From an uncultured Rhodospirillales bacterium (GTDB taxonomy: Bacteria > Pseudomonadota > Alphaproteobacteria > RF32 > CAG-239): DNA of 64,000 nucleotides. Within the stretch, counting starts at the first letter, position 1, and each line of letters begins with the position of its first letter. This document shows, in pieces, positions 34,231 to 64,000 of this stretch. The stretch spans positions 17,389-81,388 of the forward strand of contig CACWLK010000012.1 of NCBI GenBank assembly GCA_902761715.1, read 5' to 3'. Under the pieces are notes generated by a model that ran no database searches, was not told the DNA's origin, and saw nothing but the letters and a program-made list of their open reading frames with translations. The position numbers and the translations under genes are program-made.

Positions 34231-34232
34231 AA

Positions 34233-35861: not shown

Positions 35862-35862
35862 T

Positions 35863-37281: not shown

Positions 37282-37292
37282 AAGGAGAAACA

Positions 37293-40471: not shown

Positions 40472-40484
40472 GAAAGGACAAACC

Positions 40485-44020: not shown

Positions 44021-44979
44021 AAACTATATTAGTAACCGGAGGAACAGGTTTTTTAGGTTCCAATTTGTGTATAAGGCTAATAAACGAAGGTAATAATGTA
44101 ATCTGCGTTGATAATAATTATACCGGACGTTTGAGTAATATCCAAAAAATAATGAAACACCCAAATTTTCGCTTTATTAAGCATGACATTTGTGAGCCTT
44201 TGGTGGTTGATGCCAAACTTGACCAGATTTATAATATGGCTTGTCCGGCATCTCCTCCGGCTTATCAGGGAAGTTACTCTATAAAGACAACCAAGACTTG
44301 CGTCTTAGGGGCAATTAATATGCTTGATTTAGCAAAACTGCATCATGCAACCATTCTACAAACATCAACTTCTGAAATATACGGTGAGCCCTTGGTGCAT
44401 CCTCAAGTTGAAAGTTATCGCGGAAATGTCAATCCAATTGGCATCAGAGCTTGCTATGATGAGGGCAAGCGTTGTGCAGAGAGTTTGTTCTTTGATTATC
44501 ACCGTCATGAGGGTGTTGATATTAAAGTGGTTCGTATTTTTAATACCTATGGTCCGAATATGGACCCGAATGATGGTCGCGTGGTTTCAAACTTTATCTG
44601 CCAAGCTTTGTCAGGGCAAGACATTACCATTTACGGCGATGGACATCAAACACGGTCGTTTTGTTTTGTTGATGACTTGATAGAAGTTTTAATTCGTATG
44701 ATGAACTCCGAAAAAGGCTTTACCGGACCAATTAATATCGGTAACCCAGGGGAATTTACCATTAAAGAACTGGCAGAAATGGTGGTTGCAAAAGTCGGTG
44801 GTAGTTCAAAAGTGGTTTATGAAGATTTGCCGTCTGATGATCCGACACAGAGAAGACCGGACATCACATTGGCCAAAACAAAACTCGGTTGGGAACCAAA
44901 AGTCAAACTTAGCGAGGGTTTGGATAAAACAATCGCATATTTCAAAACACAAATAAATCAGTTTAAAAAGGTTGCATAA
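44017..44979 (+). CDS. UDP-glucuronate decarboxylase (UDP-xylose synthase)
   Basis: [36 protein letters not shown]. Confidence 0.9.
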
Positions 44980-44980
44980 G

Positions 44981-46279: not shown

Positions 46280-46899
46280 ATGAATTAATTGTGGTAACTA
46301 AGGATCACCGAGAAATACAAACAGATAAATTATCCGGGCTTGATATAGAATGGTTGGGAAAAGATTCGTACGTTAAGATCCATGAACCATTTGTTATAAA
46401 TAAATGTTTTTTTCAAGTTGGAGATAATGGACACATTGAAATTCAGGAAAACTCAAATATGTTTGAGCTTTACATCCGAATGGCCGCGGCTAATTCGAAA
46501 GTTGAAATAGGTAATAATTTTATAACGTCTACTGCAAAGTTTATTTTAGCAAGGGGAGGAAGTAATAACTCCATCATTATAGGAAATAATTGCCTATTTT
46601 CATACAATATCTCTATTTTGACATCTGATGGGCATAGTGTTTTTGATGTGAACACAAAAAAACTCCTAAACAATTCCGGTGGAAATATAGTCGTTTCAGA
46701 TCATTGCTGGCTAGGAAATGATGTTTGCCTAACCAAAAGGGCAAAGCTTCCTCAAGATACGATTTGTGCAGCAAAATCGCTAATTAATAAAGAATTTTTA
46801 GAAAAAAACACAATGCTTGGGGGAATTCCTGCAAAGATTATAAAAAAATTTGTTTCTTGGGATATAAGACATCCAAACGAATATATGAGGGAGGTATAA
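46276..46899 (+). CDS. Hexapeptide-repeat (LbH) acyltransferase
   Basis: IGNNCLFS, SDGH, HCWLG, GIPAKIIK. Confidence 0.8.
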   Translation: MNELIVVTKDHREIQTDKLSGLDIEWLGKDSYVKIHEPFVINKCFFQVGDNGHIEIQENSNMFELYIRMAAANSKVEIGNNFITSTAKFILARGGSNNSIIIGNNCLFSYNISILTSDGHSVFDVNTKKLLNNSGGNIVVSDHCWLGNDVCLTKRAKLPQDTICAAKSLINKEFLEKNTMLGGIPAKIIKKFVSWDIRHPNEYMREV

Positions 46900-46900
46900 A

Positions 46901-49900
46901 ATGATTGTAAAGCCAGCCTTTAAGGAGAGGAATGTTCCTGTTGTGTTTTCAGTTGATGAAAATTATGCTCCATACTTGTCCGTCTGCATATATTCTTTAA
47001 TTAGCAATTCGTCAAATACAAATAACTATGATATATGGATTCTTGACGGTGGCCTAACCGAGGTAGGAAAATCTCAGCTGAAGGCCCTGGCTAATAACCG
47101 AAAAAATATATCCATTAGATTTTTCGACATTCTCAATTTTAAGGAATTAAAAAAGAAAAATTTTTACATAAGCAACCATGCATCACTGGCAAATTATTAT
47201 CGGTTATTTATTCCCAAGATATTTTTTAGTTATGAAAAGCTACTTTACTTAGATTGCGATTTACTAATAAATGCAGATATAGCGGATTTATACGCTATAG
47301 ACATAGGGGATAACGTGCTAGGTGTTGTAAAAGATGCGTGCACATACTTTGATCCGGATTTCTGGTATAAATACTGTCTAGAAAAAGTTCAAATTAAAAA
47401 ACCATACAATTATTTCAACTCAGGTGTTTTAATATGCAATGTCAAACAGATGATCGATCTTTCTTTGACAGAAAGTAGTATGCAACGATTAAAGAAATTC
47501 AATCCTGTTTGTTGGGATCAATGCATTTTAAATTCCGTATTAGAAAATAAGGTAATGTATCTTCCATTGAATTGGAATTTTCAATGGCATTGGTTGCTTC
47601 CTGAATTTGCACAAAAGCATCCGTCTAAGTTTGTAGAATATAATTTTTTACAAGACTATTTAAATGCTTCAAAATCTCCAAAAATTCTACACTATACATC
47701 TCAGGTTAAGCCATGGAAGCGTTGGAGCGCAAAACCTGCCCAAGAATGGTGGAAATACGCGAAAAAACTTCCAATTTATAATGATATTTTAGAAAAAACC
47801 GGTTTAGGTCAAATATTATCTAAAAAAATTATTCATACGGAAAGGACCAAAAAAATGGCAGATATAAAAATGTCAATAATAATACCTGTTTATAATGTAT
47901 CTCAATACCTATCTAGGTGTCTTGAGAGCGTAATTAATCAGACATTGAAAGAAATAGAAATTATTTGTATTGATGATGAATCGACAGACGATAGTAGAGA
48001 AATATTGGAAAAATATGCTCAGCAAGATAGTAGAATAATTTTTAGAACACAAAAGAATCAAGGCCAAGGAAGTGCTCGTAATCATGGCCTTAACATTGCG
48101 AAAGGCAAGTATGTTCAATTTCTTGATTCAGATGATTTCTATGAACCTGACTGTTGCAAAAAGATGTACGAGGTTATGGAAAAACAAAAAGTTGATGTTG
48201 CCTGTTTTGAACCAAATGTAATTTATGAGGCGTATTCATTTAGAAAAAAAGAAGATGCAGTCTATTTCTCTTTAAAACAGAGAGGATTACAGACAATAAC
48301 TACAAGTACAGTGAAAACGATTGATGTAAATTGCTGGAACAAAACATTCAGAAGAAAATTCTTAGAAGACAATAATATAAGATTTCCCGAAAAATTACAT
48401 TTTGAAGACGTTGCATTTTTTTGGTTTTGGGTAACAAAAGCAAAAGTTGTATATTCCCTCAAAGAGCACCTAATAAACTATGTTAGACACCAAAATTCCT
48501 TCGTAGGAAACATATTTGACAGAAAATCATCGCATGTAATGGATGCAATGAAAGTTAATGTAATAATTTATGATTATCTTAAAAAAAACAATGTGTTTAA
48601 TAAGTTTGGCGAAGAATTTGTTAAATATATTATGTTTAAACTTCAATGGCAATTGAGTTTTGTTCCGAATTCTGATATTGAAACAAGACAAACGCTGATA
48701 AATAAAACTTCTGATCTATTGAATAAGTGTGATATAGATTTAGAGTTAACAGAAAAAGAACAATTGTTATTTGAGGCAATTACCAAGAAACAATACTATG
48801 CTCTAAACTCCGGATCTACAAGTGACTGCCAAGAATTGAAGCCTTTTTTTGAAGCACAGAATATTCCTGTCGTGTTTGCAGTTGATAAAAACTACGTTCC
48901 ATATCTCTCCGTTGCAATCCAGTCCATAATTGACAACAGTGACAAGTTTTCAAATTATGATATTGTCGTTTTATATACAGACCTATTCGAGTTCCAAAAA
49001 AGGATGCTGTTATCACAGGCTGAAGGAAAAAAGAATGTTTCAGTACGCTTTGTGAATATGGATAGATGGATTGATGAATATAAATTAAGGTCGTTAATGC
49101 AGATAAATCATATAACCGTTTCAGCGTATTTTCGGCTCTTAACTCCTGAAATATTTGAAAATTACAAAAAAATCATATATCTAGACTGTGATGTTGTGGT
49201 TAATGATGATATAGCAAAATTATATAATTTAGATATTAATAATAAATCACTGGCCGCATGCCTGGATACTGTTATTTCAAATAACCTTGATACTTGCCTC
49301 ATTAAGCAAGGTCTTGTACCATATCTGCAAAATGTTTTAGGTATGAAGGATGAAAAAAGATATTTTAATTCAGGCGTTTTAATAATCAATATCGAAAAAT
49401 TGAGGGAAACGCATATCATCAATTATTTATTCCAACTTGCAAAAATTAATAATCGTTTTTTCCACGATCAGAATATCTTAAATGCAGCTTTTGAAGATGA
49501 CTATTACGAATTGCCCCCATGTTGGAATTTACAATATCATGTGAAATTTAAATGGCCTGATTATAAAATGAAATTATCCGATTCATTAATGTTTTTGTAT
49601 GATAACATTAGTGCAAAACCAAGCATTATACACTATACATCCTCGGAAAAGCCATGGAATGAACTGATGCATACCTACACTTCTGATTGGTGGAAATATG
49701 CAAAGAATTCTCCATTCTACGAAATAATATTAAAAACAATTTTTGCGAAGTGTTCTACAGCTAATTCAATGCTTCCTAAAATAAATAAAGATATTTTTAA
49801 GAGATACAGAATTTTACTAAAATACTACAAATATAAAATACTGTCGAAGATATTATTTGGGCGTGCCAGAAGGAAGTATGCTGAAAAACGAAAAATATTC

Positions 49901-49945
49901 AAATCTAGAGTCAGAGAAATTAGAAAATATCTTAAGAGTGGTTAG
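46901..49945 (+). CDS. Trimodular glycosyltransferase GT8-GT2-GT8
   Basis: Two GT8 domains (YLDCD, FNSGV, DQ.ILN, HY...KPW) flanking a GT2 (IIPVYN, FLDSDD, FED). Confidence 0.88.
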   Translation: MIVKPAFKERNVPVVFSVDENYAPYLSVCIYSLISNSSNTNNYDIWILDGGLTEVGKSQLKALANNRKNISIRFFDILNFKELKKKNFYISNHASLANYYRLFIPKIFFSYEKLLYLDCDLLINADIADLYAIDIGDNVLGVVKDACTYFDPDFWYKYCLEKVQIKKPYNYFNSGVLICNVKQMIDLSLTESSMQRLKKFNPVCWDQCILNSVLENKVMYLPLNWNFQWHWLLPEFAQKHPSKFVEYNFLQDYLNASKSPKILHYTSQVKPWKRWSAKPAQEWWKYAKKLPIYNDILEKTGLGQILSKKIIHTERTKKMADIKMSIIIPVYNVSQYLSRCLESVINQTLKEIEIICIDDESTDDSREILEKYAQQDSRIIFRTQKNQGQGSARNHGLNIAKGKYVQFLDSDDFYEPDCCKKMYEVMEKQKVDVACFEPNVIYEAYSFRKKEDAVYFSLKQRGLQTITTSTVKTIDVNCWNKTFRRKFLEDNNIRFPEKLHFEDVAFFWFWVTKAKVVYSLKEHLINYVRHQNSFVGNIFDRKSSHVMDAMKVNVIIYDYLKKNNVFNKFGEEFVKYIMFKLQWQLSFVPNSDIETRQTLINKTSDLLNKCDIDLELTEKEQLLFEAITKKQYYALNSGSTSDCQELKPFFEAQNIPVVFAVDKNYVPYLSVAIQSIIDNSDKFSNYDIVVLYTDLFEFQKRMLLSQAEGKKNVSVRFVNMDRWIDEYKLRSLMQINHITVSAYFRLLTPEIFENYKKIIYLDCDVVVNDDIAKLYNLDINNKSLAACLDTVISNNLDTCLIKQGLVPYLQNVLGMKDEKRYFNSGVLIINIEKLRETHIINYLFQLAKINNRFFHDQNILNAAFEDDYYELPPCWNLQYHVKFKWPDYKMKLSDSLMFLYDNISAKPSIIHYTSSEKPWNELMHTYTSDWWKYAKNSPFYEIILKTIFAKCSTANSMLPKINKDIFKRYRILLKYYKYKILSKILFGRARRKYAEKRKIFKSRVREIRKYLKSG

Positions 49946-52575: not shown

Positions 52576-53739
52576 TTATTTTCCAATTTTAACAATTCCT
52601 GGACCGAATTTGTTTTCTAACTGGTCAATAACCCGGGAGAGTTTGTCATCTTCCGGCTCTAAATTATCAAACAGCGAGAACTGTTGTTTTTTGCCGATAG
52701 TAAGGTCCATCAAGGTGATTCCTGTTGCCCGGTAAGTCGTACCGCGGTGGTACAGCTGATCTAACAACTTATGCGCCGCATCTCGCAAAGTCTTTTCGGA
52801 GTTCGTTGGCTTTTCAAGTTTTGTTTCTAATTGATAAACAGCAAATTCCTTTGTCCGGACCATAACCGCAATAGTTGAACAATATCCGTTCCATAGCCGG
52901 AGCTTTTTAGAAGCATTGTGTATATGTCCGGACAGTGTGGAATGCAGGTAATCTATATCTTTTGAAAATTCTGCAAACGCGCTGGTGTCCTGAATAGATT
53001 GCGGTGGTTCAGGTTTTGGATTTACCGGTGAGACCGTTTCTCCCAGGAGTTCGTGTTTCAGAGTAACACCATTCACACCAAAGCCTTTTCTCAGCCAGCT
53101 GTCCGGCTTTGAAACATATTCTCGAATGGTGCTGATGTCATTATATAATAAGTGTTTAGAGTTCTGCCGGCCAACGCCACATACGGAATCGATCGGATCA
53201 TCGCCGACTTTTTCAAGGATCTTATCTACTTCCGGCCGGATCACATAAATACCACCGCATTTTTTTGCTTTATCACTAGCCAACTTTGCTAGGGTCTTAG
53301 ACGAACACAGGCCGATTGATACCGGAATTCCTGTGCACTTCAGGACTTCATCTCTGATATTAGTAATGAATTGCGTGTAGGTTATCTTGTGCAATTTATT
53401 AAAACCGGTCACATCAGCGTAGGCTTCATCAACCGAAACAACCTCAACATCAGGAGTAAAATCCCGAATGTTGTCCATAACTTGTTGTGATATTTCGTGA
53501 TAAAGAGAGTGATGTGCAGGAATACAAATGGCATCAGGATGTTCAACCTTGGCCTTAAAATACGGTTCGCCCATCTTAACGCCGAGTGCTTTTGCCTCCT
53601 TTGACCGGGAAACAATGATGCCTTTGTCTCCACCACCTGTCATGACACAGACAGGCTTGCCCTGTAATTTTGGATCCTTGACCCGCTCACAGGACACGAA
53701 AAAACAATCACAATCTATCAAAGCTATAATCCGTTGCAT
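52576..53739 (-). CDS. dinB: Y-family DNA polymerase (DinB/UmuC-like)
   Basis: IDCDCFFVSCE, SVDEAY, SIG....K.LAKLAS; start set at MQRII. Confidence 0.88.
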   Translation of the reverse strand: MQRIIALIDCDCFFVSCERVKDPKLQGKPVCVMTGGGDKGIIVSRSKEAKALGVKMGEPYFKAKVEHPDAICIPAHHSLYHEISQQVMDNIRDFTPDVEVVSVDEAYADVTGFNKLHKITYTQFITNIRDEVLKCTGIPVSIGLCSSKTLAKLASDKAKKCGGIYVIRPEVDKILEKVGDDPIDSVCGVGRQNSKHLLYNDISTIREYVSKPDSWLRKGFGVNGVTLKHELLGETVSPVNPKPEPPQSIQDTSAFAEFSKDIDYLHSTLSGHIHNASKKLRLWNGYCSTIAVMVRTKEFAVYQLETKLEKPTNSEKTLRDAAHKLLDQLYHRGTTYRATGITLMDLTIGKKQQFSLFDNLEPEDDKLSRVIDQLENKFGPGIVKIGK

Positions 53740-53741
53740 AA

Positions 53742-53756
53742 GAACAAGAGTAGAAC
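53742..53756 (-). promoter_or_regulatory. Alphaproteobacterial LexA (SOS) box overlapping the -10 of dinB
   Basis: GTTC-TACTCTT-GTTC (GTTC-N7-GTTC); TTGACT-17-TACTCT promoter. Confidence 0.8.
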
Positions 53757-53867
53757 ATAAGGACGAAAAAGTCAATGTGTATATAAGGTTATGCTCGTAA
53801 AATATCGTTAAAAAAGTGAGTCTCTCCCTAAAATACCCATAGGGTTAGTATTTGTTTAAAAGCATTT

Positions 53868-54349: not shown

Positions 54350-54405
54350 TATTTAGCTTGTGTTTTTCAATAAAATTGTTTAGAGTAACAATGAAGAGGT
54401 GCAGC

Positions 54406-55368
54406 ATGTCATACGAAAAAACGGAAGAATTATTGGATTTAGCAATTTGGATGCAGTCGTCACGTGAAGGTGTCAGCTTGAGAGATATTATGAATCGTTT
54501 TAATGTATCTAAGCGAACAGCTGACCGAATGAGAGATTTAATTTTAGCACGTTTTCCCCAAACGATGGAAGCTGATTCAAATACACGAGAAAAGCGGTGG
54601 TATATTCCCCAAGGAACATTACGTGATATAATCCAATTTAGTGCTGATGAATTATCCTGCTTAGAAATTGCCAAAGATGCATTAGATAAAAGCCATTTGA
54701 ATGATAAGGCTGAAGAATTAAATAAAATTATATTGAAAATAAAGGCTTCCATTAAACCCGAGACCTTTCGACGTATCGAACCTGATGCCGAAGAATTGAT
54801 GCGTGCGGAAGGAATTGCTTGTCGCCCGGGGCCGAAAATAAATATTGCACCGGAAATTATAAAACCCTTACGAGAGGCTATTTTATCGTGTCATCAAATC
54901 TTTATTACATATTATAATAAAAACACAAAGAAAATCAGCAAAAATATTCTTAAGCCGTATGGTTTCTTATATGGTGATCGGAATCACTATTTGGTTGCGG
55001 CTCACGCTGATGGCTTTGCTAATTCTAAACCCCATAATTTTATTTTGTTAAACATTAAAGAAGTAAAAATTTTACCTGAAACTTTCATATATTCGCAGGA
55101 CTTCTCATTAAAAAGCTACGCAGAGCAGTCATTTGGTGCATTTCAAGAAGATCCTGTTGATGTGGAATGGATCTTTGATAAAGAGGTTGCGGAAGAAGCA
55201 TCGCATTATATTTTTCACCCGACACAAAAAATGATTAAAAATAAGAACGGAACGCTGACTGTAAAATTCAATGCCGGCGGGCTAATGGAAATGAATTGGC
55301 ATTTGTACACATGGGGAAATCATGTAAAAGTTATTAAACCGAAGAAAGGAAAGCAAAGTGGCAAATAA
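54406..55368 (+). CDS. DriD-like wHTH-WYL-WCX transcriptional regulator 1
   Basis: EK...LLDLA..M.....GVSL..I..RF.VSKRTA.RMRD...FPQ; RPGP; PYGFLYG.R.YLVA; HPTQ; WHLYTWG. Confidence 0.88.
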   Translation: MSYEKTEELLDLAIWMQSSREGVSLRDIMNRFNVSKRTADRMRDLILARFPQTMEADSNTREKRWYIPQGTLRDIIQFSADELSCLEIAKDALDKSHLNDKAEELNKIILKIKASIKPETFRRIEPDAEELMRAEGIACRPGPKINIAPEIIKPLREAILSCHQIFITYYNKNTKKISKNILKPYGFLYGDRNHYLVAAHADGFANSKPHNFILLNIKEVKILPETFIYSQDFSLKSYAEQSFGAFQEDPVDVEWIFDKEVAEEASHYIFHPTQKMIKNKNGTLTVKFNAGGLMEMNWHLYTWGNHVKVIKPKKGKQSGK

Positions 55369-56077
55369 AGAAGTAAATTTAAAATGGTCTAGAGCATACA
55401 AAATTGATGAGTTAGACAAGGCGTTTACTAAAGTAGATGAGCTTAAAGGAAAAGGTGGACTTTACCTATGGATTGAGGGCAATACAAGACCTCGTGTCAG
55501 TTATATCGGTGAAGCCGAAAATTTTGAAAGCCGTTTCAGAGAACATATTGAAAATGTTATCCATGGTCGTTACACTGCCGTCCCATTTCATTGTGAAGAT
55601 GATGATTTATTAAATTCATATTATGAATTATTAACTAACGAAAATTGCGAATATTATCATCCTCAAATTATAAATTTTTCTGAAGATTTGGATAGTAAAA
55701 TTACAATAATAAAAAAAGGGATTGATTTAAAAATTAAACATCTTAAAAATACTTGTTTTTTATTCGCTGAAATTTCAAAGGAAAATGCTGATAAACGAAA
55801 AGAAATTGAAGCTATTTTTATGCAAGCAATGCACAAAAAATATTTTGAAGAAATATATAAATACCACCAAAATACAAAATTAAAAGATCTCCATTGGAAA
55901 TGTTTCAGCAAATCAAATACCAACTTTTGGGGAACTATTAGCTCATATCCCAAACACGATTATGTAATTACTAATGATTTTTCCGGTATAAATTCAGATC
56001 TTCACAAGAATGAATTAGAAAAAGTATTTAGCGAAACACGTAGTTGGGATAAAAATAAACGCTGGCCTATTAAATAG
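55358..56077 (+). CDS. GIY-YIG-like nuclease
   Basis: GGLYLW...SYIGEAENFESRFREH and a later conserved E; coupled to the WYL gene. Confidence 0.6.
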   Translation: MANKEVNLKWSRAYKIDELDKAFTKVDELKGKGGLYLWIEGNTRPRVSYIGEAENFESRFREHIENVIHGRYTAVPFHCEDDDLLNSYYELLTNENCEYYHPQIINFSEDLDSKITIIKKGIDLKIKHLKNTCFLFAEISKENADKRKEIEAIFMQAMHKKYFEEIYKYHQNTKLKDLHWKCFSKSNTNFWGTISSYPKHDYVITNDFSGINSDLHKNELEKVFSETRSWDKNKRWPIK

Positions 56078-57065
56078 TATCATCATATTTTCGGACCGGT
56101 ATTTTATCTAAAACAAAGGCACAATCTTCATAGTAAAAGTGGCGTTTCCAAAAACTTTCCCCATGAGCATTTTTAAGGCACTCTATATCTATTCGGTGCT
56201 TATAGTATTCTATTTCTTCTTGCCAGCGAATGACATTTACTTTATCTTCTGATTTGATTCCTGTTTCCTCAGGCGGCGTGTTTTCTAAGCTCCAAATTTT
56301 ACGATAAAGCGTTAAAACGACATCTGAAATATCAAATAACATCTTATCGTTATCCCGCTTCCACAATTCATCTATCTTTAACGGCAGATCCGTATGTGAT
56401 AACCCTAAAGATGCACTGATTAATATTGCACAATTATTTTTTTGAGCAAAAACCTTTAGATTATTTATTAAGTCGGCACTATAAGATAATATATTTGGCT
56501 TCACGTCCAAAAAAATAATTTCCGGCATGTACTTTTTATATAATTTTTCAATAGTATCATTCTCAAAACGATATACTGTTTCAAAAAATAAAGGAATGTC
56601 CGCTAATTCAAAATTTAACTTTTCCAATGAGGCTTTTAATCTGGGTAATGTCCAATTTTCTATATTTTGCTCAGTTAAATAAAGAACAGTTGTTTTTTGT
56701 TGAGCTATATAATATGCAGAACTGAGCAAAAATGCTGTCATTCCCATCAACGGCGTGCTCCAAATTGAAATAATATTGCTTTTATAGTATCCACCGGACA
56801 ATGGCTTGTTTAAGGATTTGAAACCTGTTGTAATTGTTTTTTCCTGATTTCGTTTATCTTCTGTAAGCACCGACAATGCAGAAGCATTTTGATAACTATC
56901 TAGTTGTCTCAATAGAGAATTAGCTTTTTTTAACTGCGAATCTATATCTGACAAAACACTTTCAGGCTCAACTTTTTGTATTTTTTTTGAAGATTCCTCA
57001 ATTGAAGTAATAATTGGTTGGAAATCATTTATGAATGCTTTGATAATTTCTTTTGCATCTAACAT
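56070..57065 (-). CDS. Degenerate DnaB C-terminal-like protein
   Basis: ITTGFKSLNKPLSGG; Walker A altered to STPLMGMT; SDVVLTLYR, KNAHGE. Confidence 0.65.
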   Translation of the reverse strand: MLDAKEIIKAFINDFQPIITSIEESSKKIQKVEPESVLSDIDSQLKKANSLLRQLDSYQNASALSVLTEDKRNQEKTITTGFKSLNKPLSGGYYKSNIISIWSTPLMGMTAFLLSSAYYIAQQKTTVLYLTEQNIENWTLPRLKASLEKLNFELADIPLFFETVYRFENDTIEKLYKKYMPEIIFLDVKPNILSYSADLINNLKVFAQKNNCAILISASLGLSHTDLPLKIDELWKRDNDKMLFDISDVVLTLYRKIWSLENTPPEETGIKSEDKVNVIRWQEEIEYYKHRIDIECLKNAHGESFWKRHFYYEDCAFVLDKIPVRKYDDTI

Positions 57066-57446: not shown

Positions 57447-57545
57447 CCGACCAAATAAAAAAGTCCCGTTTATCGGGACTTTTTTGTGTTTAATACGAGA
57501 TTATCATGTTTAATTTAGTTGAAAATCTAGTGCTTGAGAGATGAT
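57447..57545 (+). repeat. 99-bp direct repeat, right boundary (attR-like)
   Basis: Identical to 10505..10603; contains the 3' end of the DUF262 gene. Confidence 0.9.
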
Positions 57546-59543
57546 CTGTGGTGTCAAATGAATACCTGTCGTACCAGTTCCCCATCGACCTTTGTCTGCG
57601 ATGTTCTCACATAGTCCCTTTGGGTCATTTATTTTATCATAATCTAAAGATATATTTAAGAATAGTGCAGACTTTTGAGGAATAACATCAACAAAATTTG
57701 TTTCTGCTTTATACGCTATGTACAATTTCTTAAATTCCTTTTTAATACATGCATCGAGATTCATAATCTTTTTATCAAGTTCCTCGTAAATCCGCAAAGT
57801 TTCATCTGAAAAGCTATCAGAATAATGCTCAAATGTGTAATGTGTTCGTTTTTTTGATGGCTCCTCTGTATATTTTTGAATAACTTCATTACTTACAGTA
57901 GGAAACTGCCAAATTTTAAGGGCATAATTAGATAAAATTTTGGCTCTTTCTATGATTTTGTCTTTATTCCACTCTGTTTGATTGCGAATATACGAATTTA
58001 ATCTAAGCCCCGTATCCGTAAATCCACCTTTCATTTTTAATTTTTCAGAAAATGGTCTATCGCTCATTTCTGAGTTGTAGGCAGTAAGTGTTAGATTACC
58101 TATTGTATGTAAGTATTGAGTATGAATTGTCTGCCAATCATCACCCAGTGCTTCCTTCCACCCATTCCTTAAATTTTCGTTTTCAGGCATTACGTGTTCA
58201 ATTGTAAATGAGCCGAGATCAAGTTTTTCCTTGTTGTCATACTTCTCAAGCTTACCAAGTATATACTGGCGAATGCGCATATGGTATATATCTTTTTCAA
58301 CAAAGCGTTGTGCAAACTCCTCATCTTTAGGAAATTCTTTATAAGAATCAAGTAAAGTGTAGTTAGCACATATTGAATTCACGTAGTCATTTTGGCGGAT
58401 TTTATTCTTCATGACAGCAAATGTTTTGTTCAGCGAGTTTGTTGGAATTTCACAAATAGCTCTTCTAAATACGTAACTTTCCGTCAGCCGTAGTATTTGT
58501 ATAAATTCTTCCCGAGTTATCTTATTGTTTTCGTAGTCATTGTATATATACATTAAAAATGGATATGCTACTTCCATACGCAATAATCTGATGTCAGAAA
58601 AAATTTCATTAAGTTCTGTATCATTCGACTTTGAAAATAAAATGTTTGTATAGCATTTTGCATAGCTATAAATATCGGTGCAAAGCTCTTGGTTTGATGT
58701 ATTCAAACCTTGGTGGTATTTTTTGAATTCATCATAAACATTTCCCTCCTTCGGAATTCTAGAAATTTTCATTGTAATGTAATCTCTGAAAAAGCCGTCC
58801 ATTAATTCAGATTGCTTATTATAATTAAACAGCCTTTCCGTTGGCAACCACACGTTTTTATACAATTCAGTTTGTTCAAGATTGCTTAATCCCATCAATA
58901 TGTAATTTCGAATTAAATCCGATTGGGATAAGTCCATTCCGGTAGAATTAAGGCTCTCAAAAATAGATTGAGGATCATCTACAGAAGGGTCTAATGTTAC
59001 ATCAACAATTTGCAGTTTTGCAATTGCCTGTTCTATTTCATCTTGTGATAATCCAGATGAACTTATTTGCGTCAAGAAGTAGTGATATGCATCAAGGATA
59101 CGAGAATTTTTGACATCTTCTGTAGGTGAATTTTCAATCAATTTTATCAGGACATCTTTGTCACTGTATGTAAGAATAAGTTTATATAGATCACTTTCTT
59201 TGTCAGTGTCGTTTTTTAGAAATTTACGCGTTATAGCTGTATTGATTCCTTTTGATGATAAGTAATCACGCAGGGCAATTAACAATATTGTCAGCGTAGT
59301 CAAGCGTTGTTGACCATCAATAACCAAACTTTTTGATGTTCCTGAAATTGGTGCACTTTCTATTACGCTTACAATAGACCCGATGAAATGACCGTTTTTA
59401 CTGTTTTTTTCTAAGAAAACGATGTCATTCCACAACCTTCGGCACTGCTCTTCTTTCCAACTGTACGTACGCTGATATAAAGGAACAATAAATTGTTTCT
59501 CGCCATTAAAAATTTTTAATACATTTCCGTCTATCGCTCTCAT
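57510..59543 (-). CDS. GmrSD-type modification-dependent restriction endonuclease (DUF262+DUF1524, C-terminal DUF5655-like)
   Basis: PLYQRTYSW, IDGQQRLTT, IFESLN, TIEHVMP, IGNLTL..YNS. Confidence 0.88.
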   Translation of the reverse strand: MRAIDGNVLKIFNGEKQFIVPLYQRTYSWKEEQCRRLWNDIVFLEKNSKNGHFIGSIVSVIESAPISGTSKSLVIDGQQRLTTLTILLIALRDYLSSKGINTAITRKFLKNDTDKESDLYKLILTYSDKDVLIKLIENSPTEDVKNSRILDAYHYFLTQISSSGLSQDEIEQAIAKLQIVDVTLDPSVDDPQSIFESLNSTGMDLSQSDLIRNYILMGLSNLEQTELYKNVWLPTERLFNYNKQSELMDGFFRDYITMKISRIPKEGNVYDEFKKYHQGLNTSNQELCTDIYSYAKCYTNILFSKSNDTELNEIFSDIRLLRMEVAYPFLMYIYNDYENNKITREEFIQILRLTESYVFRRAICEIPTNSLNKTFAVMKNKIRQNDYVNSICANYTLLDSYKEFPKDEEFAQRFVEKDIYHMRIRQYILGKLEKYDNKEKLDLGSFTIEHVMPENENLRNGWKEALGDDWQTIHTQYLHTIGNLTLTAYNSEMSDRPFSEKLKMKGGFTDTGLRLNSYIRNQTEWNKDKIIERAKILSNYALKIWQFPTVSNEVIQKYTEEPSKKRTHYTFEHYSDSFSDETLRIYEELDKKIMNLDACIKKEFKKLYIAYKAETNFVDVIPQKSALFLNISLDYDKINDPKGLCENIADKGRWGTGTTGIHLTPQIISQALDFQLN

Positions 59544-59613
59544 AAATACCTCACTTTAAATGTGTTTATTTGTTTTTTACTGCACCCATTATTAAAATAT
59601 CGTTACAATCTAC

Positions 59614-60615
59614 CTAGTATTCATCGTGCAAGTTTTCGAACACTCCGGTGCTGGGGTCAAAAGAAACTCTCACTATTCCGGAATATCCGTCACTGTTTTG
59701 GGCGACTATAATCTCACATAAGTATTTTGTTTCTTTGCACTGTTTTTCCCAGCTTGCGTAGCGTTTTTCAAATTTCTCCGAGCTTTCATTGCGGCGTGGA
59801 CGAGGCTCGTTATTAATCAAGTAATAACTTTCACGATATATGAGCAGAACCTTATTAGCAAATGCGGGAGGACGACTTTCAAAACCTCGAATATCGCATA
59901 ACATGGGGCGCTTATCTGCCCTACTTTCAAGATTGCGGTTCAGCTGGGCAAGAACGATAATCGGAATTTCGAATCTGGTTGCCAGTTCTTTAATCTGACA
60001 CATAACGTCATCACAAGGTCCATCAAGACTTGGGGTAATTAGTTGTAAGTAATCAATAAATAACGCTCCAATCTGATGTTCCCGCCGGATATTTTGCAGT
60101 TCGTCTGCGATATCATCAATGTTATAAATGTTATCATAGTAATAAAGTGGCAATTTTTCCAAAGTATATTCGGTTGTAACTATGCGATCATAATTTTCGC
60201 GTATGTAAGAACCTTGCATTTGATATACAGGTATTGAGGCTTCCATACTGACTAGGCGCTCTGCAAACTTTTTGGAAGAATATTCGAGCCCTATATATAC
60301 CACACATTTATTATCATCGGGATTTTGCTGATGTTGAGCAGAAAAATCTGTTGCTATGTTACGAGCCATATTGATAGCAAGGGAAGTTTTACCCATTGCC
60401 GGACGCCCACCAATAAGCACAACATCGCCGGGACACAAACCATCAAGTTTGGTATCAAGAGCGGTTAAACCAGTCGATATGCCACGCAGTTTATCAGGAT
60501 TTTGGTATTTGAATGCCAAATCTATATCATAATTTTGAAGTATATGGGCAATATGGTTGTTATGAAAACTTTTATTGTTCTGTTGCTTTTGCTCATCGTT
60601 ATACTTTATAGCCAT
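59614..60615 (-). CDS. DnaB-like helicase C-terminal domain protein lacking the N-terminal domain
   Basis: GISTGL..LD, GRPAMGKTS, IDYLQL, LAQLNR.LESRADKRP; start at MAIKY. Confidence 0.8.
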   Translation of the reverse strand: MAIKYNDEQKQQNNKSFHNNHIAHILQNYDIDLAFKYQNPDKLRGISTGLTALDTKLDGLCPGDVVLIGGRPAMGKTSLAINMARNIATDFSAQHQQNPDDNKCVVYIGLEYSSKKFAERLVSMEASIPVYQMQGSYIRENYDRIVTTEYTLEKLPLYYYDNIYNIDDIADELQNIRREHQIGALFIDYLQLITPSLDGPCDDVMCQIKELATRFEIPIIVLAQLNRNLESRADKRPMLCDIRGFESRPPAFANKVLLIYRESYYLINNEPRPRRNESSEKFEKRYASWEKQCKETKYLCEIIVAQNSDGYSGIVRVSFDPSTGVFENLHDEY

Positions 60616-60663
60616 TTTACACCCTTTCAAATTATTCGCACGTACAAGAAAAGCCTCTTTCAT

Positions 60664-61002
60664 TTATTGATGGGTCTCAAAATACATTATAACAGGTATC
60701 AAAATTGCAAAAAATATTAGTCCGGTGAAGATGATAAAATCCATAAACTTTGGCATTATTTTATCAAGTATTCTGTTTTCTAAAAGGTCTTTGGGCAAAA
60801 CTCCGGCCAACTGTAAAAAACATAGACCGCCGGAACCTGTAAAGGTCGTAAAGACGGCTCGTTGTACTCCTACCAGTCCAAGTTCACCTGATAAGGTGTA
60901 ACAAACCCAATAACAAAGGAATACACAAAAAATTTGAATAATTTTCCAACCTATCCAGCGCATAAATGCTAGCCAGTTTATTTCTCGCAAATCTTGCAAC
61001 AT
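60664..61002 (-). CDS. Small membrane protein (about 3 TM)
   Basis: Hydrophobic, GAGGTG RBS, first gene after box 3. Confidence 0.65.
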   Translation of the reverse strand: MLQDLREINWLAFMRWIGWKIIQIFCVFLCYWVCYTLSGELGLVGVQRAVFTTFTGSGGLCFLQLAGVLPKDLLENRILDKIMPKFMDFIIFTGLIFFAILIPVIMYFETHQ

Positions 61003-61073
61003 CTTTCACCTCACTTTGTTTTTTATATCTTACAAGTGGTGTTTTTATCATGCAAGAGCAGAAAATTTAGTTT

Positions 61074-61088
61074 TGCCAGATTCTGACA
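61074..61088. promoter_or_regulatory. Putative WYL/DriD box 3
   Basis: TGCCA-GATTC-TGACA, 18 bp upstream of a minus-strand TTGCAT-17-TAAGAT promoter. Confidence 0.65.
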
Positions 61089-61325
61089 TTACTTCAAATT
61101 GAGGTATTCCTCTACTAAAGTTAGTGATTTTATGCGTTTTAAATTTTAGATAAAAGAGCCAATAGAATATTAACTCTCTAGCTCATCATTGTCGTCAGCC
61201 TCTTCGCCGTATGTCTCGCTTTCAACTGCGATATTTGCGATTTTTCTCGCAACTGCGTCATACCTGCGGTCTTCACTGACAAAGTCAAGAAGCTTTTGTC
61301 GTATACAACGTCTTTAATCTCGTAA

Positions 61326-61952
61326 TTAAAGGTGTCGTATGTCATTATTCAAACCTTTCAAAAATTTTCGAACATGAGGAATTGCTAGTCTCCTAACAGC
61401 ATGGACTACACCATAATCAGCACGTGTTAGACTTTTGAGGTATGCATCAGTTTCACGCATAAATTCTTTGATTAATGTTTCCTTTTTAATCATATAGTCC
61501 GCTATTACTTGCGTGTTGCCTGTTTTACGGTAGAGTTCTTCTACTCTGTCGTTATAAACGCACTTATCTTGTTCAGGATCGTAATACTTTTCTTCATCGC
61601 TCAATATTGTTAAACGAATATATGGTTTGTCGTTCCATTTTTCATGGCAACGTAGCATTATTTCCCGACCTTCTTCGTCTAGTAACAAATATGCTTCCGA
61701 AAAATCTGAGCAAATGCATTCTAACCAACGATACATATCATTGGGAGAATCAGCATATAAAGGCATATAAAACCCTGTTAACTTATTCCCAAAGTTAAGG
61801 TTATAAAAACAATCCATATAGGTTTTATAATGTTTTACCGTAAAATTATCGCAAACTTCAGGCTTGCTTTTAAGGATACGATCTCTAAAGCCTTCATGGG
61901 CATAAAAGCCAGCCGGTGTAAAACCTGATTCAACTGCCGCTATACTATACAT
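61326..61952 (-). CDS. Hypothetical protein
   Basis: 208-aa ORF, weak RBS, directly downstream of RNA candidate 1. Confidence 0.6.
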   Translation of the reverse strand: MYSIAAVESGFTPAGFYAHEGFRDRILKSKPEVCDNFTVKHYKTYMDCFYNLNFGNKLTGFYMPLYADSPNDMYRWLECICSDFSEAYLLLDEEGREIMLRCHEKWNDKPYIRLTILSDEEKYYDPEQDKCVYNDRVEELYRKTGNTQVIADYMIKKETLIKEFMRETDAYLKSLTRADYGVVHAVRRLAIPHVRKFLKGLNNDIRHL

Positions 61953-61984
61953 AGTTTAGTTCCATACTTCTCATATACTTATTA

Positions 61985-62477
61985 CTCTCTCAGAGCTGAA
62001 TGAGCCTAGTCCGGATGCAGAGAGGCAGGTTTGTGCAAACCTCAAAGCTACGCAACACGAGCCTATCCTTAGTTGTCAGGTGTTGGGAGCCGGACGTTAG
62101 ATCCCCTCGCAGAATCCGTTACCAAAACGGGGGCAAGGGGCTCGTTCCTCAGACCGACCTGGTTACAAATCCAGGGGTGTAAGGAAACGGTTAAATAAAG
62201 GGGGGGAAGCTGCTGATGAGTCCATCTCATCCCTTATCCATACGCCCGAAGCGACCCCTTAGACAGCGACTTTCGTCCCTGTAATAATCTCTAAATCTCT
62301 AACAACATATCTGTTAGTGACCAGGTTAAAACTACAACACGGCAGCTGATATGTAGCCACCGCAGTGCTGGTGAAGTCCAATTCTTCCCTATTACACTGT
62401 GGCATGCACTCCAAGCATCTGAAGCCACCCTCGGTTAAGGTCAAACGAGGAATGCTCTCTCCCCTAAACTTCGAGCT
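61985..62477 (-). ncRNA. Structured non-coding RNA candidate 1 (or long leader)
   Basis: TTGACA-17-TAGATT promoter (62512-62484), GC-rich with no credible CDS, many hairpins, 43-nt core shared with candidate 2; 3' end uncertain. Confidence 0.55.
62137..62179. repeat. 43-bp exact repeat, copy 1
   Basis: GGGGCTCGTTCCTCAGACCGACCTGGTTACAAATCCAGGGGTG, also at 62850..62892. Confidence 0.92.
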
Positions 62478-62531
62478 AATTATAATCTATCATAGCGTAA
62501 TATTAGTGTCAATCATCTCAAATTTCAGTTT

Positions 62532-62546
62532 TGCCAGATTCTGACA
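62532..62546. promoter_or_regulatory. Putative WYL/DriD box 4
   Basis: TGCCA-GATTC-TGACA, 19 bp upstream of a minus-strand TTGACA. Confidence 0.65.
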
Positions 62547-62616
62547 CCGCTTTATATTTGGTGCATCAATCGACACGGAAATATGTTTGTAAAAACTGAG
62601 GTAAAAGGTAAAGACA

Positions 62617-63096
62617 TAAATAAAAGAGGAGCGGATGGTCGCCCAGCTCCATCATCGAGAACACGCGATGCTATAAGCACCGGCTCCGCGGTTGAGCTTT
62701 CCGCTGCTCGCTCCTCTTAACGGAACTCCAGACCAGGCGATATGTCCACCTGCTGGGAGCCTTGAAAGTAACGCAGGGTAGACATATTACCTCCTTCCAA
62801 GAGCTAAAACCCCCAACACGCCACACCGGCTACAAATCCGGGGGATACGGGGGCTCGTTCCTCAGACCGACCTGGTTACAAATCCAGGGGTGGAGGAACA
62901 TACCGCTGCAGATTCCCTGAGGGAATCTCCCATAGATAAATCATACGGTAACAACAGCGGTATTAGAAGAACATTTTGAAGGATGAATATGTCAATAGTA
63001 TAGACTATCTAACCTACAAAATGAACTTATCACGTCTGCAATAATATGTGTTCAAGACTGCCACTGGCAGCACATATTCTTTTATACAAACGGACT
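62617..63096 (-). ncRNA. Structured non-coding RNA candidate 2 (contains a 22-codon sORF)
   Basis: TTGACA-17-CATCAT promoter, nested stems, ends in AAGAGGAGCG/CGCTCCTCTT stem plus U-run. Confidence 0.55.
62850..62892. repeat. 43-bp exact repeat, copy 2
   Basis: Identical to 62137..62179. Confidence 0.92.
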
Positions 63097-63150
63097 ATTT
63101 TTATGATGTATTATAAACAACACTTTGTCAATACACCTAAATTTCAGTTT

Positions 63151-63165
63151 TGCCATAATCTGACA
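63151..63165. promoter_or_regulatory. Putative WYL/DriD box 5
   Basis: TGCCA-TAATC-TGACA, 19 bp upstream of a minus-strand TTGACA; divergent from WYL 2. Confidence 0.65.
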
Positions 63166-63222
63166 TCATATTTACTTTTTTTAAATATCGTTGGTTTATA
63201 ATGGCGGAAAACGGAGGGGAAA

Positions 63223-64000
63223 ATGTTTTATGAAAAGACGCAAAAACTCTTAGAGTTGTCATTGTGGATGCAAAATGCCGATGCCGGCGTATCCATTGCT
63301 GATATTATGCAAAAATTCGGCGTTTCCAAGCGCACGGCTATCCGCATGAAAGACATGATAAAAGAGCAGTTTCCACAAATGCGGGAAATTTGCGGTGCAC
63401 ATAACACCAAACGTTGGTTTATTCCCCAAGGGGCGCTCAATAATTATGTCGGCTTTTCTCTAAACGAGGTTAATGCCTTGCAAAATGCCGTAAAACTAAT
63501 GAAAAAGAAAAATCCTCAAGATGTCGATTCACTTGAGATGATTTTGCATAAAATTAAGGCTTCTATGAGCAACGAATCACGCATGAGGATAGAACCCGAT
63601 GCCGAGGCATTGTTACAGGCCGAAGGCTATGCTTTGCGGCCGGGACCGAGAATTGTCGTTAATAAAGAATTTATGCAGACTTTGCGGAATGCGGTGATTG
63701 CGTGCAAAATTATCAAGATTAAATATCGCTCAAAATCAAAAGACGGGTGGCGGACTGTGTATCCTTATGGTTTTTTGTATGGGAACAAACATTATCTGAT
63801 TGCATGGCACACCCAGCGCAAAATTATGTGTTATTTTGATTTGAACAATATTCAGAAAATTAATGTAACCGATGAATATTTTGTGAGAGATCCTGATTTT
63901 TCTCTCGAGGAATTCAGCAAGCAATCGTTCGGTGTGTATCAGGAAGAGCCTTTTGAGGTGGAGTGGCTGTTTGATAAGGAAGTTGCCGCAGATGCCGCAA
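63223..64000 (+). CDS. DriD-like WYL regulator 2 (runs off the window; absent from the ORF track)
   Basis: GGAGG RBS; MFYEKTQKLLELSLWMQ...VSKRTAIRMKD...FPQM...RIEPDAEAL...RPGP...PYGFLYG, paralogous to 54406..55368. Confidence 0.88.
   Translation, partial: MFYEKTQKLLELSLWMQNADAGVSIADIMQKFGVSKRTAIRMKDMIKEQFPQMREICGAHNTKRWFIPQGALNNYVGFSLNEVNALQNAVKLMKKKNPQDVDSLEMILHKIKASMSNESRMRIEPDAEALLQAEGYALRPGPRIVVNKEFMQTLRNAVIACKIIKIKYRSKSKDGWRTVYPYGFLYGNKHYLIAWHTQRKIMCYFDLNNIQKINVTDEYFVRDPDFSLEEFSKQSFGVYQEEPFEVEWLFDKEVAADAA

Follow-up and report, generated by a model that had tools for sequence, protein, structure and literature searches.

What is encoded by a stretch of about 1.2 kb that lies beside the gene of a WYL-domain regulator and appears to specify no protein? 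The stretch is found towards the end of the window, by which we mean the whole 64,000-nt segment analysed from a contig of an uncultured Rhodospirillales bacterium. A preliminary description had read it as two tandem, paralogous large structured RNAs under a DriD-like box, in DNA GC-richer than its flanks and devoid of any credible coding sequence. The last two statements were borne out: across 61985-63165 no ORF on either strand exceeds 61 aa, and the GC content of the units' stretch is 0.44-0.55 versus 0.33-0.38 in the flanking DNA.

Two non-coding units and their operator boxes

The minus strand of the window between 61960 and 63170 comprises two separately promoted non-coding RNA genes, the promoters being predicted ones. 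Unit 2 (~480 nt) extends from about 63096 down to 62618, where an intrinsic terminator closes it; unit 1 (~520 nt) spans about 62478 to 61960 and continues into a 208-codon ORF (ORF208; 61326..61952, minus strand) directly behind it, with no terminator in between. Both units begin with TGTCAGAnTnTGGCAAAACTGAAATTT, followed by TTGACA, 17 bp and a -10-like hexamer, confirming the promoter architecture that had been described for each. The operator box of unit 2 (63139..63165, minus strand; TGTC-AGATTAT-GGCA plus AAACTGAAATTT) is located 58 nt from the WYL start codon, and its sigma-70 promoter occupies 63103..63131 (minus strand; TTGACA, 17 nt, CATCAT). The corresponding elements of unit 1 are a box at 62520..62546 and a promoter at 62484..62512 (both minus strand; TTGACA, 17 nt, TAGATT). 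A third box (61062..61088, minus strand; promoter TTGCAT/TAAGAT) is followed by a 112-aa membrane ORF (ORF112, 61002-60664, minus strand) and, behind that, by a DnaB_C-like ATPase (60663-59614, minus strand), and a fourth box promoter leads into a hairpin of ~90 nt with a U tract upstream of ORF190. No family was found for ORF208, ORF112, ORF190 or ORF223 in Pfam, PHROGs, PADLOC or ESM Atlas. ORF208 follows the unit 1 homologue in one relative only, and it is absent from the relatives G148 and G171, in which the units are present. The setting of the units resembles a mobile-element island.

Within the 1.43-Mb genome the 27-nt box occurs four times, always on the minus strand of the window's contig, and its reversed-pattern control does not occur at all. 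A strict scan for TGTC-N7-GRCA followed after 16-21 nt by TTGACA returned four genome sites, versus none or one in 20 shuffles, and each of the four precedes a non-coding RNA. A box variant, TGTCAAAACATGACA, stands ahead of a third unit on another contig (C17, see below). Among 29 WYL homologue loci retrieved by protein alone, with no RNA or box query, the box was found at the same upstream position in 20. The box by itself gave ten matches in IMG/VR, which we took as chance since none had a -35 hexamer behind it; box plus -35 was recovered from four and six loci of metagenome and genome collections, respectively, mostly in genomes already found. Loci from several genera (L067, L070, L075 and L019) repeat the succession of WYL gene, box promoter, RNA and next box promoter, though with different modules. 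RNA arrays are nonetheless optional: M1 or M3, two modules described below, adjoin the WYL gene in only 6 of the 29 loci, and in many other WYL loci the box promoter leads directly into an ORF.

The regulator gene (63223..64000, plus strand, continuing to 64182 past the window end) encodes 319 aa and belongs to a WYL clade that is represented in 107 of 283 genomes of the order. Its Pfam WYL match has an E value of 3.8e-10, and in a phmmer search against PDB its residues 2-311 matched 9pfq and 8tp8, both Caulobacter DriD (PMC13004042, PMC10853764), with E about 1e-46. The WYL neighbour that had been noted is thus a full-length DriD homologue across the wHTH, WYL and WCX parts. Of the DriD residues said to contact ssDNA (Y168, S172, R178, R189, Y192, R204, W206, R207, Y240 and R288; PMC10853764), five are kept in the regulator (Y168, S172, R178, Y192, Y240) and five are changed (R189N, R204C, W206F, R207D, R288L). 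The DriD operator is given as a CGxC-N7-GxCG pseudo-palindrome with an AT-rich centre (PMC10853764); the TGTC-N7-GGCA box retains G2, C4, G12, C14 and the AT-rich centre and differs at C1 and G15. This change of the outer C/G to T/A goes together with a replacement of the base-reading Glu40 by Ile in the regulator, in which Arg37 and Arg41 are kept (alignment read by eye). The likeness of the box to a DriD site holds for most of its layout (PMC10853764) and fails for its position: DriD sites are reported to occupy the -35 position of promoters that have no -35 hexamer (PMC13004042), whereas here 19 nt separate the end of the box from a downstream consensus TTGACA, itself followed by a 17-nt spacer, so that activation and repression are not distinguishable from the placement of the box. 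At driD and CCNA_03891, too, the regulator gene is described as divergent to the promoter that it controls (PMC13004042, PMC10853764). A putative TGTC-N7-GRCA operator at both units, at the C17 unit and at two further island promoters would fit the divergent DriD homologue, to judge by sequence.

Modular composition, predicted folds and occurrence in RNA libraries

The notion of two large paralogous RNAs did not survive closer comparison, as the units proved to be mosaic chains of small modules (M1, M2, E1, E2/M3 and M4). All module coordinates refer to the minus strand. Unit 2 consists of three hairpins, H1 (63095-63029), H2 (63028-62967) and H3 (62963-62900), followed by E1-A (62899-62857), E1-B (62856-62806), M3 (62811-62726) and M4 (62719-62618), which includes the intrinsic terminator and has a stand-alone homologue in L012. 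Unit 1 begins with M1 (62478-62392) and M2 (about 62398-62363; stand-alone homologue in L021), continues past a terminator-like hairpin (62364-62338) and ends with E1-A (about 62192-62141), E1-B (62140-62103) and E2 (62095-62009). The 43-nt core (CACCCC..GAGCCCC) is identical in the two units, as had been noted, with copies at 62850..62892 in unit 2 and 62137-62179 in unit 1 that lie 713 nt apart. It is the sole repeat common to both; homology is confined to the double hairpin and the domain after it, and the remainder is unalignable. Contig C17 (21640-21130, minus strand) carries a third unit whose core is laid out alike, with a terminator at its end and a tRNA gene adjoining. Each unit bears two copies of E1 with a constant 8-nt loop. 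The five E1 copies of this genome all fall within the three RNA units, on which ground a dispersed MITE-like repeat was rejected; a CRISPR array or ToxI-type tandem repeat RNA was likewise discarded, there being no regular short direct repeats. Module make-up varies even between genomes whose WYL proteins are 98% identical.

The helices named in the preliminary description and their GAAA and UUCG loops can be located in the sequence, and the minimum-energy folds include them. Unit 2 folds far better than its shuffles (z -5.8; opposite strand z -4.6), whereas the stability of unit 1 is no better than that of shuffles (z -0.9). Compensatory change between the units was upheld in part: hairpin B differs on both strands, whereas hairpin A changes on one strand only because its 3' strand lies within the identical core.

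Comparison among homologues revealed strong covariation in M1 and M3. In 12 distinct M1 sequences 97.3% of cells were paired, versus 30-57% when the strands were slid, 13 of the 25 pairs were changed on both sides, and none of 500 shuffles came as high. For M3 the paired fraction was 96.6% versus 24-49% when slid; helix Z, which MAFFT misaligns, was judged by duplex energies, and cognate M3 helices reached -12.1 and -10.0 kcal/mol versus -5.8 and -4.8 kcal/mol for non-cognate ones. Abundant G-U pairs in both modules place the fold on the promoter strand. These results provide good support for M1 as a pseudoknotted motif of ~87 nt and for M3 as two hairpins with complementary loops, both being predicted folds, and for regarding the two as new RNA motifs absent from Rfam. 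The constant loops read AUUUGUAR in E1 and AUAUrUC / GAyAUAU in M3. E2 was considered as a variant of the M3 fold and set aside, as a comparison by eye gave no convincing common helices.

The earlier remark that no tmRNA, RNase P or 6S signature was recognisable in the units agrees with the Rfam searches, in which no family matched the window. At the gathering threshold cmscan returned no match for the window and 15 related loci, at E values up to 10 the best hit in 61800-63300 had an E of 3.6, and the C17 locus yielded its tRNA only. The possibility that the C17 unit is tmRNA, RNase P or 6S RNA was rejected, all three being located elsewhere in the genome, and GOLLD, ROOL, OLE, HEARO, riboswitches and ribozymes were rejected because no cmscan score came near a gathering threshold. 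No similar DNA was found in GenBank phages or PLSDB plasmids, and the 32-nt core had no exact match in IMG/VR.

Both units are represented in RNA libraries, as seen in unstranded contigs for which DNA carry-over is possible. Assembled contigs from four metatranscriptome runs of four studies cover parts of each within 59000-64000, namely 62884-63082, 62640-62853 and 62573-62732 in unit 2 and 62011-62179 in unit 1. Elsewhere in that interval RNA contigs match just two 36-nt pieces with 4-5 mismatches, and stretches lacking such cover do not indicate silence. Contig ends from two studies fall at 63082 and 63085, close to the predicted start of unit 2, and one study's contig ends at 62640, at its terminator; Logan contigs of this kind do not permit strand, transcript ends or induction to be read, and RNA libraries may include DNA.

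Module copies opposite polyvalent-protein genes

Copies of every module type were found in related MAGs of rumen Alphaproteobacteria or in their phage contigs. In the types examined for it (E1, M1, M2, M3 and M4) the copies carry a sigma-70 promoter of their own, and most types are there placed antisense to a long ORF. Wherever Pfam placed domains in the host ORF it was a polyvalent-protein gene, with the module in an inter-domain linker. E1 occurs directly past the LPD3 domain and, in L061, also before ART-PolyVal, in ORFs of 2063-2290 aa. In 8 of 13 E1 copies TTGACAT, a spacer of 16-17 nt and a TATACT-like hexamer stand 72-75 nt upstream of the loop and are followed by two hairpins and a U tract, all opposite the ORF strand. 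Copies of M1, M2 and M3 were found antisense within open frames of 274-1011 aa, and one frame with an antisense module copy encodes ddrB-ParB, MuF_C and PBECR5; M1, M3 and M4 copies are sometimes intergenic. Promoter, fold and terminator opposite a coding gene thus characterize the E1, M1, M2 and M3 cassettes of other genomes, and the window units themselves overlap no ORF. Many homologues, among them the 13 E1 copies, were retrieved via the RNA or box sequence itself, so that homologue counts are biased.

Sequence identity extends to individual alleles. E1-B of unit 2 is identical at 42 of 42 nt to a phage polyvalent gene in viral contig L061, and E1 of the C17 unit is 95.5% identical across 44 nt to L062 and L063. 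L037/L040 contain a linker homologous to E2, whose C17 copy matches ORFs of G200 and G040 at 93% over 91-98 nt. Among the seven viral loci compared E1 alone matched, the E2 matches being to MAG ORFs. No target is known for H1-H3. An antisense target in the unit-bearing genome was rejected, since no other complementary site was found there; nor was a polyvalent gene, and any target would therefore be foreign.

The reading that we tentatively prefer, with a probability of roughly 0.4, is that a DriD-type sensor switches on composite RNAs acting as trans-antisense agents against polyvalent-protein genes of rival elements. The analogy with DriD and CapW suggests that ssDNA arising from damage, induction or infection would allow the regulator to act on the box promoters. 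The composite RNAs would then work in trans, with E1 and E2 antisense to conserved linkers in the polyvalent-protein mRNAs of phages and conjugative elements that enter the cell or share it; a loop-loop contact would start pairing, less polyvalent protein would be made, and the island would possess an RNA tool for competition between mobile elements or for defence. Equally, the shared sequence could stem from recombination with polyvalent genes, pairing function being absent. A wider proposal, possible yet doubtful, is that the inter-domain linkers of giant polyvalent-protein genes also serve as complete antisense sRNA genes with promoter, covarying fold and terminator, one strand being translated while the other folds, and that the island has gathered them into composite RNAs controlled by an ssDNA sensor and silencing the polyvalent proteins of rivals, a library-like interference made of RNA only, without Cas or Argonaute.

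The repetition of constant loops would also suit a protein-binding scaffold, a sponge or a self-assembling RNA, whose hairpins would capture a protein or, like the large phage-linked RNAs GOLLD and ROOL, hold RNAs together by loop-loop contacts, the pairing with genes playing no part. We consider this rather unlikely. It would account for E1 being present twice per unit with its constant 8-nt loop, for M3 occurring one to three times per RNA with conserved, nearly palindromic and complementary loops, for RNAs abundant enough to be assembled from metatranscriptomes when flanking genes are not, and for the location on a mobile-element-like island. However, no partner protein was identified and the neighbouring ORFs are without family, Rfam gave no match to GOLLD, ROOL or other families, and the antisense placement of most module types in long ORFs, together with allele matches of 95-100% to phage genes, would be left unexplained.

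A less probable origin still is a relic of a plus-strand polyvalent gene whose domain-coding parts were lost when repeated linkers recombined, the remaining cassettes being still transcribed from their antisense promoters to no use for the island. Plus-strand frames of E2, E1 and M4 do resemble linker peptides (SPDAER..LGAG; ..TNPG..; FVKT..AVELSAAR), with stops and one frameshift, close relatives differ in module make-up, and pieces of polyvalent genes are frequent in these genomes. A polyvalent-protein pseudogene as such was rejected, as tblastn with nine polyvalent-locus protein sets matched the window and C17 only in pieces of 12-54 aa (E below 1e-3), in E1 and E2 only. Against a relic, the operator boxes ahead of the units are those of the island and stand in place of the usual linker promoters, the layout of WYL gene, box, RNA and box recurs with different modules in the four loci named above, the core is identical between units despite differing flanks, and compensatory changes preserve helix pairing. 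The concern that the units are decayed coding sequence or dispersed repeats is half justified: their modules are homologous to polyvalent-gene linkers, but on the opposite strand and folding there, the G-U-rich covarying helices of M1 and M3 forming solely on the strand opposite the polyvalent-gene frame.

Cis-acting leaders or attenuators that set expression of ORF208 (unit 1) and ORF190 (the small RNA at the fourth box) are very unlikely, for although unit 1 lacks a terminator ahead of its ORF and has an internal terminator-like hairpin, and ORF190 is preceded by a hairpin with a U tract, unit 2 is terminated and followed by a promoter and no gene, G148 and G171 keep the units without ORF208, and the C17 unit terminates beside a tRNA gene.

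Significance and relation to known systems

If the trans-antisense reading is true, non-coding RNAs join the outputs of the DriD/WYL ssDNA-sensing pathway, so far known for protein genes, polyvalent-protein genes hold embedded antisense RNA genes in their linkers, and one mobile element can shut down another by sequence matching without protein. Polyvalent-protein genes are regarded as the anti-defence payload that many phages and plasmids carry. A full-text literature search, judged by titles and abstract openings, found nothing on WYL/DriD-controlled non-coding RNAs or on antisense RNAs in polyvalent-protein genes. Even if the function is not confirmed, M1 and M3 remain new motifs and the box a candidate operator for the WYL clade.

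The DriD regulon of Caulobacter crescentus, governed by a WYL activator that senses ssDNA, resembles the present locus in having the regulator divergent to a box promoter. It differs in its targets, which are didA, recA and bapE rather than non-coding RNAs on a mobile island, and in half of the ssDNA-contact residues, the outer operator bases and the position of the box.

CopA, RNAI, Sok, the P4 CI RNA and P1 C4 are cis-antisense control RNAs of plasmids and phages. Like them, the cassettes are short, strongly folded and mobile-element-borne, with their own promoter and terminator opposite a putative target gene, and their hairpin loops, 7-8 nt in length, might initiate loop-loop pairing. Unlike them, the cassettes are embedded between the domains of giant polyvalent ORFs, in linkers whose other strand is translated, and the window modules are chained into RNAs of ~500 nt with the sense gene absent and a damage-type regulator in charge. 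GOLLD and ROOL share with the units a length of several hundred nt, an ornate structure, an association with prophage-like DNA and with rumen or gut samples, and abundance in RNA libraries, but cmscan matched neither to the units even at E up to 10, and the units have no single conserved architecture, being mosaics whose modules are also met singly. In genes of Alphaproteobacteria, Rickettsia palindromic elements form in-frame palindromic inserts. The likeness to them lies in a folded element of 45-95 nt, in its in-frame translation within ORFs and in its additional occurrence in RNA genes; E1, however, is tied elsewhere to polyvalent-protein linkers rather than scattered, and it brings a promoter and a terminator on the opposite strand.

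Structured non-coding units on two contigs

In the window, which spans G000:C12:17389-81388, no ORF between 61960 and 63170 exceeds 61 aa on either strand, and GC content is 0.44-0.55 versus 0.33-0.38 in the flanks, which agrees with the preliminary description of a GC-rich, non-coding stretch built of two units. Both units start, on the minus strand, with TGTCAGAnTnTGGCAAAACTGAAATTT; TTGACA follows 19 bases after GGCA and is in turn followed, after 17 bases, by CATCAT or TAGATT. The two had also been described as folded paralogues. They share an identical 43-mer and a double hairpin, but alignment between them is confined to this double hairpin and the domain after it. Unit 2 folds much better than shuffled sequences (z -5.8; opposite strand, z -4.6), an advantage not seen for unit 1 (z -0.9). 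A hairpin with a U tract closes unit 2 (62644-62618, minus strand), and unit 1 enters a 208-codon ORF (61952-61326, minus strand).

The genome (1.43 Mb, 26 contigs) holds a third unit on contig C17 (21640-21130, minus strand; positions 1620-2140 of locus L033), with the double hairpin and 3' domain of unit 1, the box variant TGTCAAAACATGACA and the promoter TTGACA/TATACT. It contains two hairpins of the E1 type (hairpins A and B of the preliminary description), a second module, E2, bearing a 1-nt frameshift relative to its coding homologues, and, as terminator, a long hairpin similar to the small fourth-box RNA (see below). At G000:C17:20700-21090 in the same locus, a tRNA whose variable arm is long and whose anticodon loop is CUUGAAA precedes two near-identical ~200-nt repeats, each ending in a partial tRNA copy; these resemble remnant attachment sites of integrated elements, stacked one after another.

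The preliminary description recognised no known RNA class, and cmscan against Rfam agreed: at E up to 10 it returned only chance miRNA and snoRNA rows at 61800-63300, and it gave no match for the C17 unit or 15 related loci; its sole match in the window was the tRNA at 10435-10508. tmRNA, RNase P and 6S RNA were rejected as identities of the C17 unit, all three being located on other contigs. The tmRNA detected by ARAGORN (G000:C2:21969-22297, minus strand; tag ANDNELAPVALAA) is of the permuted, two-piece type, which fits an alphaproteobacterial host.

A search of sequencing runs located the DNA in gut or rumen metagenomes, bovine ones among them, and, in small shares, in six RNA runs. For four RNA runs, each from a different study, contigs were compared with positions 59000-64000, of which they covered the units only: X15 matched 62884-63082 with zero differences, X16 joined 62640-62853 to 62103-62155, X17 comprised 63085-62962, 75 other letters and 62179-62011, and X20 matched 62573-62732. 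The joined contigs (X16, X17) are hybrid units of relatives. Contig ends in two studies (63082 and 63085) lie close to the predicted unit 2 start at ~63096, and that at 62640 in one study coincides with the terminator. These contigs support transcription but do not prove it, since they carry neither strand nor level and DNA may be present in RNA libraries.

A DriD-type regulator and its predicted operator

Divergently from unit 2, a gene starting at 63223 encodes a 319-aa protein with a WYL domain (full sequence from locus L007). Its residues 2-311 match PDB entries 9pfq and 8tp8 (E ~1e-46), described in excerpts of PMC13004042 and PMC10853764 as complexes of Caulobacter DriD with ssDNA, target DNA and RNA polymerase. 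The alignment shows that the WYL protein retains the base-reading residues Arg37 and Arg41 and five of ten ssDNA-contact residues; in place of Glu40, the reader of the outermost C, it has Ile. The DriD site is given in excerpts of PMC10853764 as CGxC-N7-GxCG with an AT-rich centre, and the didA site as CGTC-N7-GGCG; the box found here, TGTC-N7-GGCA, shares the layout and four key bases, whereas its outer pair is altered along with residue 40 of the WYL protein.

The genome has four copies of the 27-nt box, all on the minus strand of contig C12 and within 4.4 kb (window positions 61088, 62546 and 63165; C12:82770). A stricter scan (TGTC-N7-GRCA, 16-21 nt, TTGACA) gave four sites, against 0-1 in 20 shuffles, namely those of unit 1, unit 2, the C17 unit and a hairpin RNA beyond the window end. 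The latter, expressed from the predicted fourth-box promoter (G000:C12:82770-82590; L007 ~8771-8600), is ~90 nt long, has a U tract and lies upstream of ORF190 and a 70-aa zinc-ribbon ORF; its counterpart in locus L068 has an inserted piece of the unit 2 hairpin H3.

As a check free of RNA-sequence bias, the WYL protein was searched in 283 genomes of the order, and 107 contained a homologue at E up to 1e-30. The majority of the matches listed were ~50%-identity homologues, the level of a second WYL-WCX regulator in the window that is 51% identical to the first and is followed by a GIY-YIG-like ORF (54358-56077, plus strand). In 20 of the 29 fetched loci from other genomes the box was present on the strand opposite the WYL gene, at a distance of 51-170 nt from its start codon, down to 60% WYL protein identity; M1 or M3 modules lay beside the WYL gene in six of the 29, and in many of the remaining loci the box promoter directly precedes an ORF. 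The box is thus probably the operator of the clade, and the RNA chains are optional cargo between regulator and target operon. By these sequence criteria the presumed regulator of the units is DriD-type with a matching, clade-wide operator, to which it is predicted to bind. DriD sites take the -35 position of promoters lacking a -35 (PMC13004042, in excerpt), whereas the box here precedes a consensus -35. The WYL protein may either activate or repress these promoters.

Downstream of the third box, a Y-family polymerase (IMS/IMS_C; 52576-53775), a weak DnaB_C-like ATPase (56070-57065), a GmrSD-type restriction enzyme with a DUF5655 tail (57510-59543) and a DnaB_C-only ATPase of 349 aa (59614-60663), all on the minus strand, form a damage- and defence-flavoured set. 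Past the window end, where 3.5 kb of the contig remain, genes for an ankyrin protein and a DnaQ-like exonuclease are found, together with small ORFs without family. A phage tail module (31106-41106, plus strand) with tape-measure protein, gp53-like fibre ends and gpJ-like tip is a separate prophage part upstream of glycosyltransferase genes (43019-49945).

Small modules and their antisense homologues

BLAST of the 1211 nt against the 283 genomes matched 18, own genome included, always piecewise. Same-genus genomes G156, G171 and G148, whose WYL proteins are 88-99% identical, carry hybrid units, e.g. the 5' part of unit 1 with the 3' part of unit 2. In other genera the order of WYL gene, box promoter, RNA, terminator, next box promoter and small membrane ORF recurs, but the modules are different. 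The units are chains of small modules whose make-up varies between relatives, not the single large RNA family first envisaged.

Compensatory changes were seen in the helices of M1 and M3. M1 (unit 1, 62478-62392), a ~87-nt motif detected with a model in 9 of 151 sampled genomes, gave 25 RNAalifold pairs from seven sequences, nine of them compensatory. Over 12 distinct sequences 97.3% of cells were paired, against 30-57% after sliding; changes on both sides occurred in 13 of 25 pairs, and double-change cells numbered 53 versus 16.8 in shuffles, with none of 500 as high; a loop-to-3' pseudoknot (AGCA/UGCU, AGCG/CGCU, AGUU/AACU) was recognised by eye. M3 (unit 2, 62811-62726; 5 of 151 genomes) consists of hairpins X and Z with complementary loops, AUAUrUCYRC and GYGGAyAUAU; 96.6% of its cells were paired (24-49% slid), again with 0 of 500 shuffles as high for double-change cells. 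Across 12 M3 modules, cognate versus non-cognate duplex energies were -12.1 versus -5.8 kcal/mol for X and -10.0 versus -4.8 kcal/mol for Z; the loop-loop helix is non-discriminating because it is conserved. Loci L070 and L075 hold three M3 copies in tandem and L067 one. M4 (unit 2, 62719-62618), the 3' domain with terminator, has a homologue in L012 that stands alone between its own promoter and terminator and whose outer stem is altered on both strands; M2 (unit 1, ~62398-62363), a short hairpin, stands alone in L021. As many helices include G-U pairs, the folds exist on the promoter strand only.

In other genomes E1 lies within long ORFs, on the opposite strand, that encode ..APRTDPATNPGDKG.. 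and span 2063-2416 aa in IMG/VR contigs. It directly follows the LPD3 domain in the two ORFs scanned against Pfam, is upstream of ART-PolyVal in viral contig L061, and was present in each of the five LPD3 loci recovered by protein similarity. Four of these had come up in the pattern scan; in the fifth, L079, the E1 stem is preserved through both-strand changes that alter the peptide. On the RNA strand, eight of 13 copies have TTGACAT, 16-17 nt and TATACT or TATATT, 72-75 nt upstream of the loop, and two more differ by a single -35 mismatch. The cassette order is promoter, first hairpin, E1 and U tract; ten cassettes gave 17 RNAalifold pairs, seven with compensatory change, and the -35 reads Asn-Val-Asn on the sense strand. 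In L061, L062, L066 and L079 (IMG/VR), ~130 nt after LPD3, the peptide ..EKAPRTDPATNPGDKGLTSEISEDxxSIxxxxENVN.. is encoded opposite a consensus promoter, two hairpins and a terminator.

E2 of unit 1 and the C17 unit (GUCCrG...CyGGAC) is 82-93% identical to SPDAEREFNATLKATQTKPTFSRQDLGAGL, an in-frame part of ORFs with LPD1 or LPD23. Outside WYL loci, copies of M1, M2 and M3 each have TTGACA, 17 nt and TAnnnT immediately upstream, and several are antisense in open frames of L085 (779 aa), L090 (708 aa), L095 (469 aa), L013 (274 aa) and L021 (1011 aa; ddrB-ParB, MuF_C and PBECR5, with M2 immediately after MuF_C); copies in L020, L093, L094, L012 and L086 are intergenic. Judging by the likeness of the M4 plus-strand peptides of the window and L012, M4, too, is a former linker. 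These alignments identify the module homologues as putative antisense sRNA cassettes in polyvalent-gene linkers. The own genome contains no polyvalent gene, tblastn yielding only 20-29-aa pieces of E1 and E2, and nine further protein sets matched nothing else in the units. E1-B of unit 2 is identical to L061 (42/42 nt), and over 44 nt the C17 E1 shows 95.5% identity to viral contigs L062 and L063.

Proposed function and known systems

The two units, or three with that on C17, are folded, modular, transcribed-looking RNAs, and we hold with high confidence that they are real, structured and WYL-linked. Their promoters would be controlled in an ssDNA-triggered manner, and the RNAs may act in trans as antisense on foreign polyvalent mRNAs; we assign this full chain a tentative probability of about 0.4. 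Alternatives to trans-antisense action are that the RNAs serve as a scaffold or sponge, form a transcribed relic or act as a cis leader. Among the literature entries listed by our searches, neither WYL- or DriD-controlled ncRNAs nor antisense RNA genes in polyvalent-protein linkers were found. Mobile elements are known to carry antisense and structured RNAs, and the DriD pathway is known as well, whereas neither this combination nor linkers with a dual use are known to have been described.
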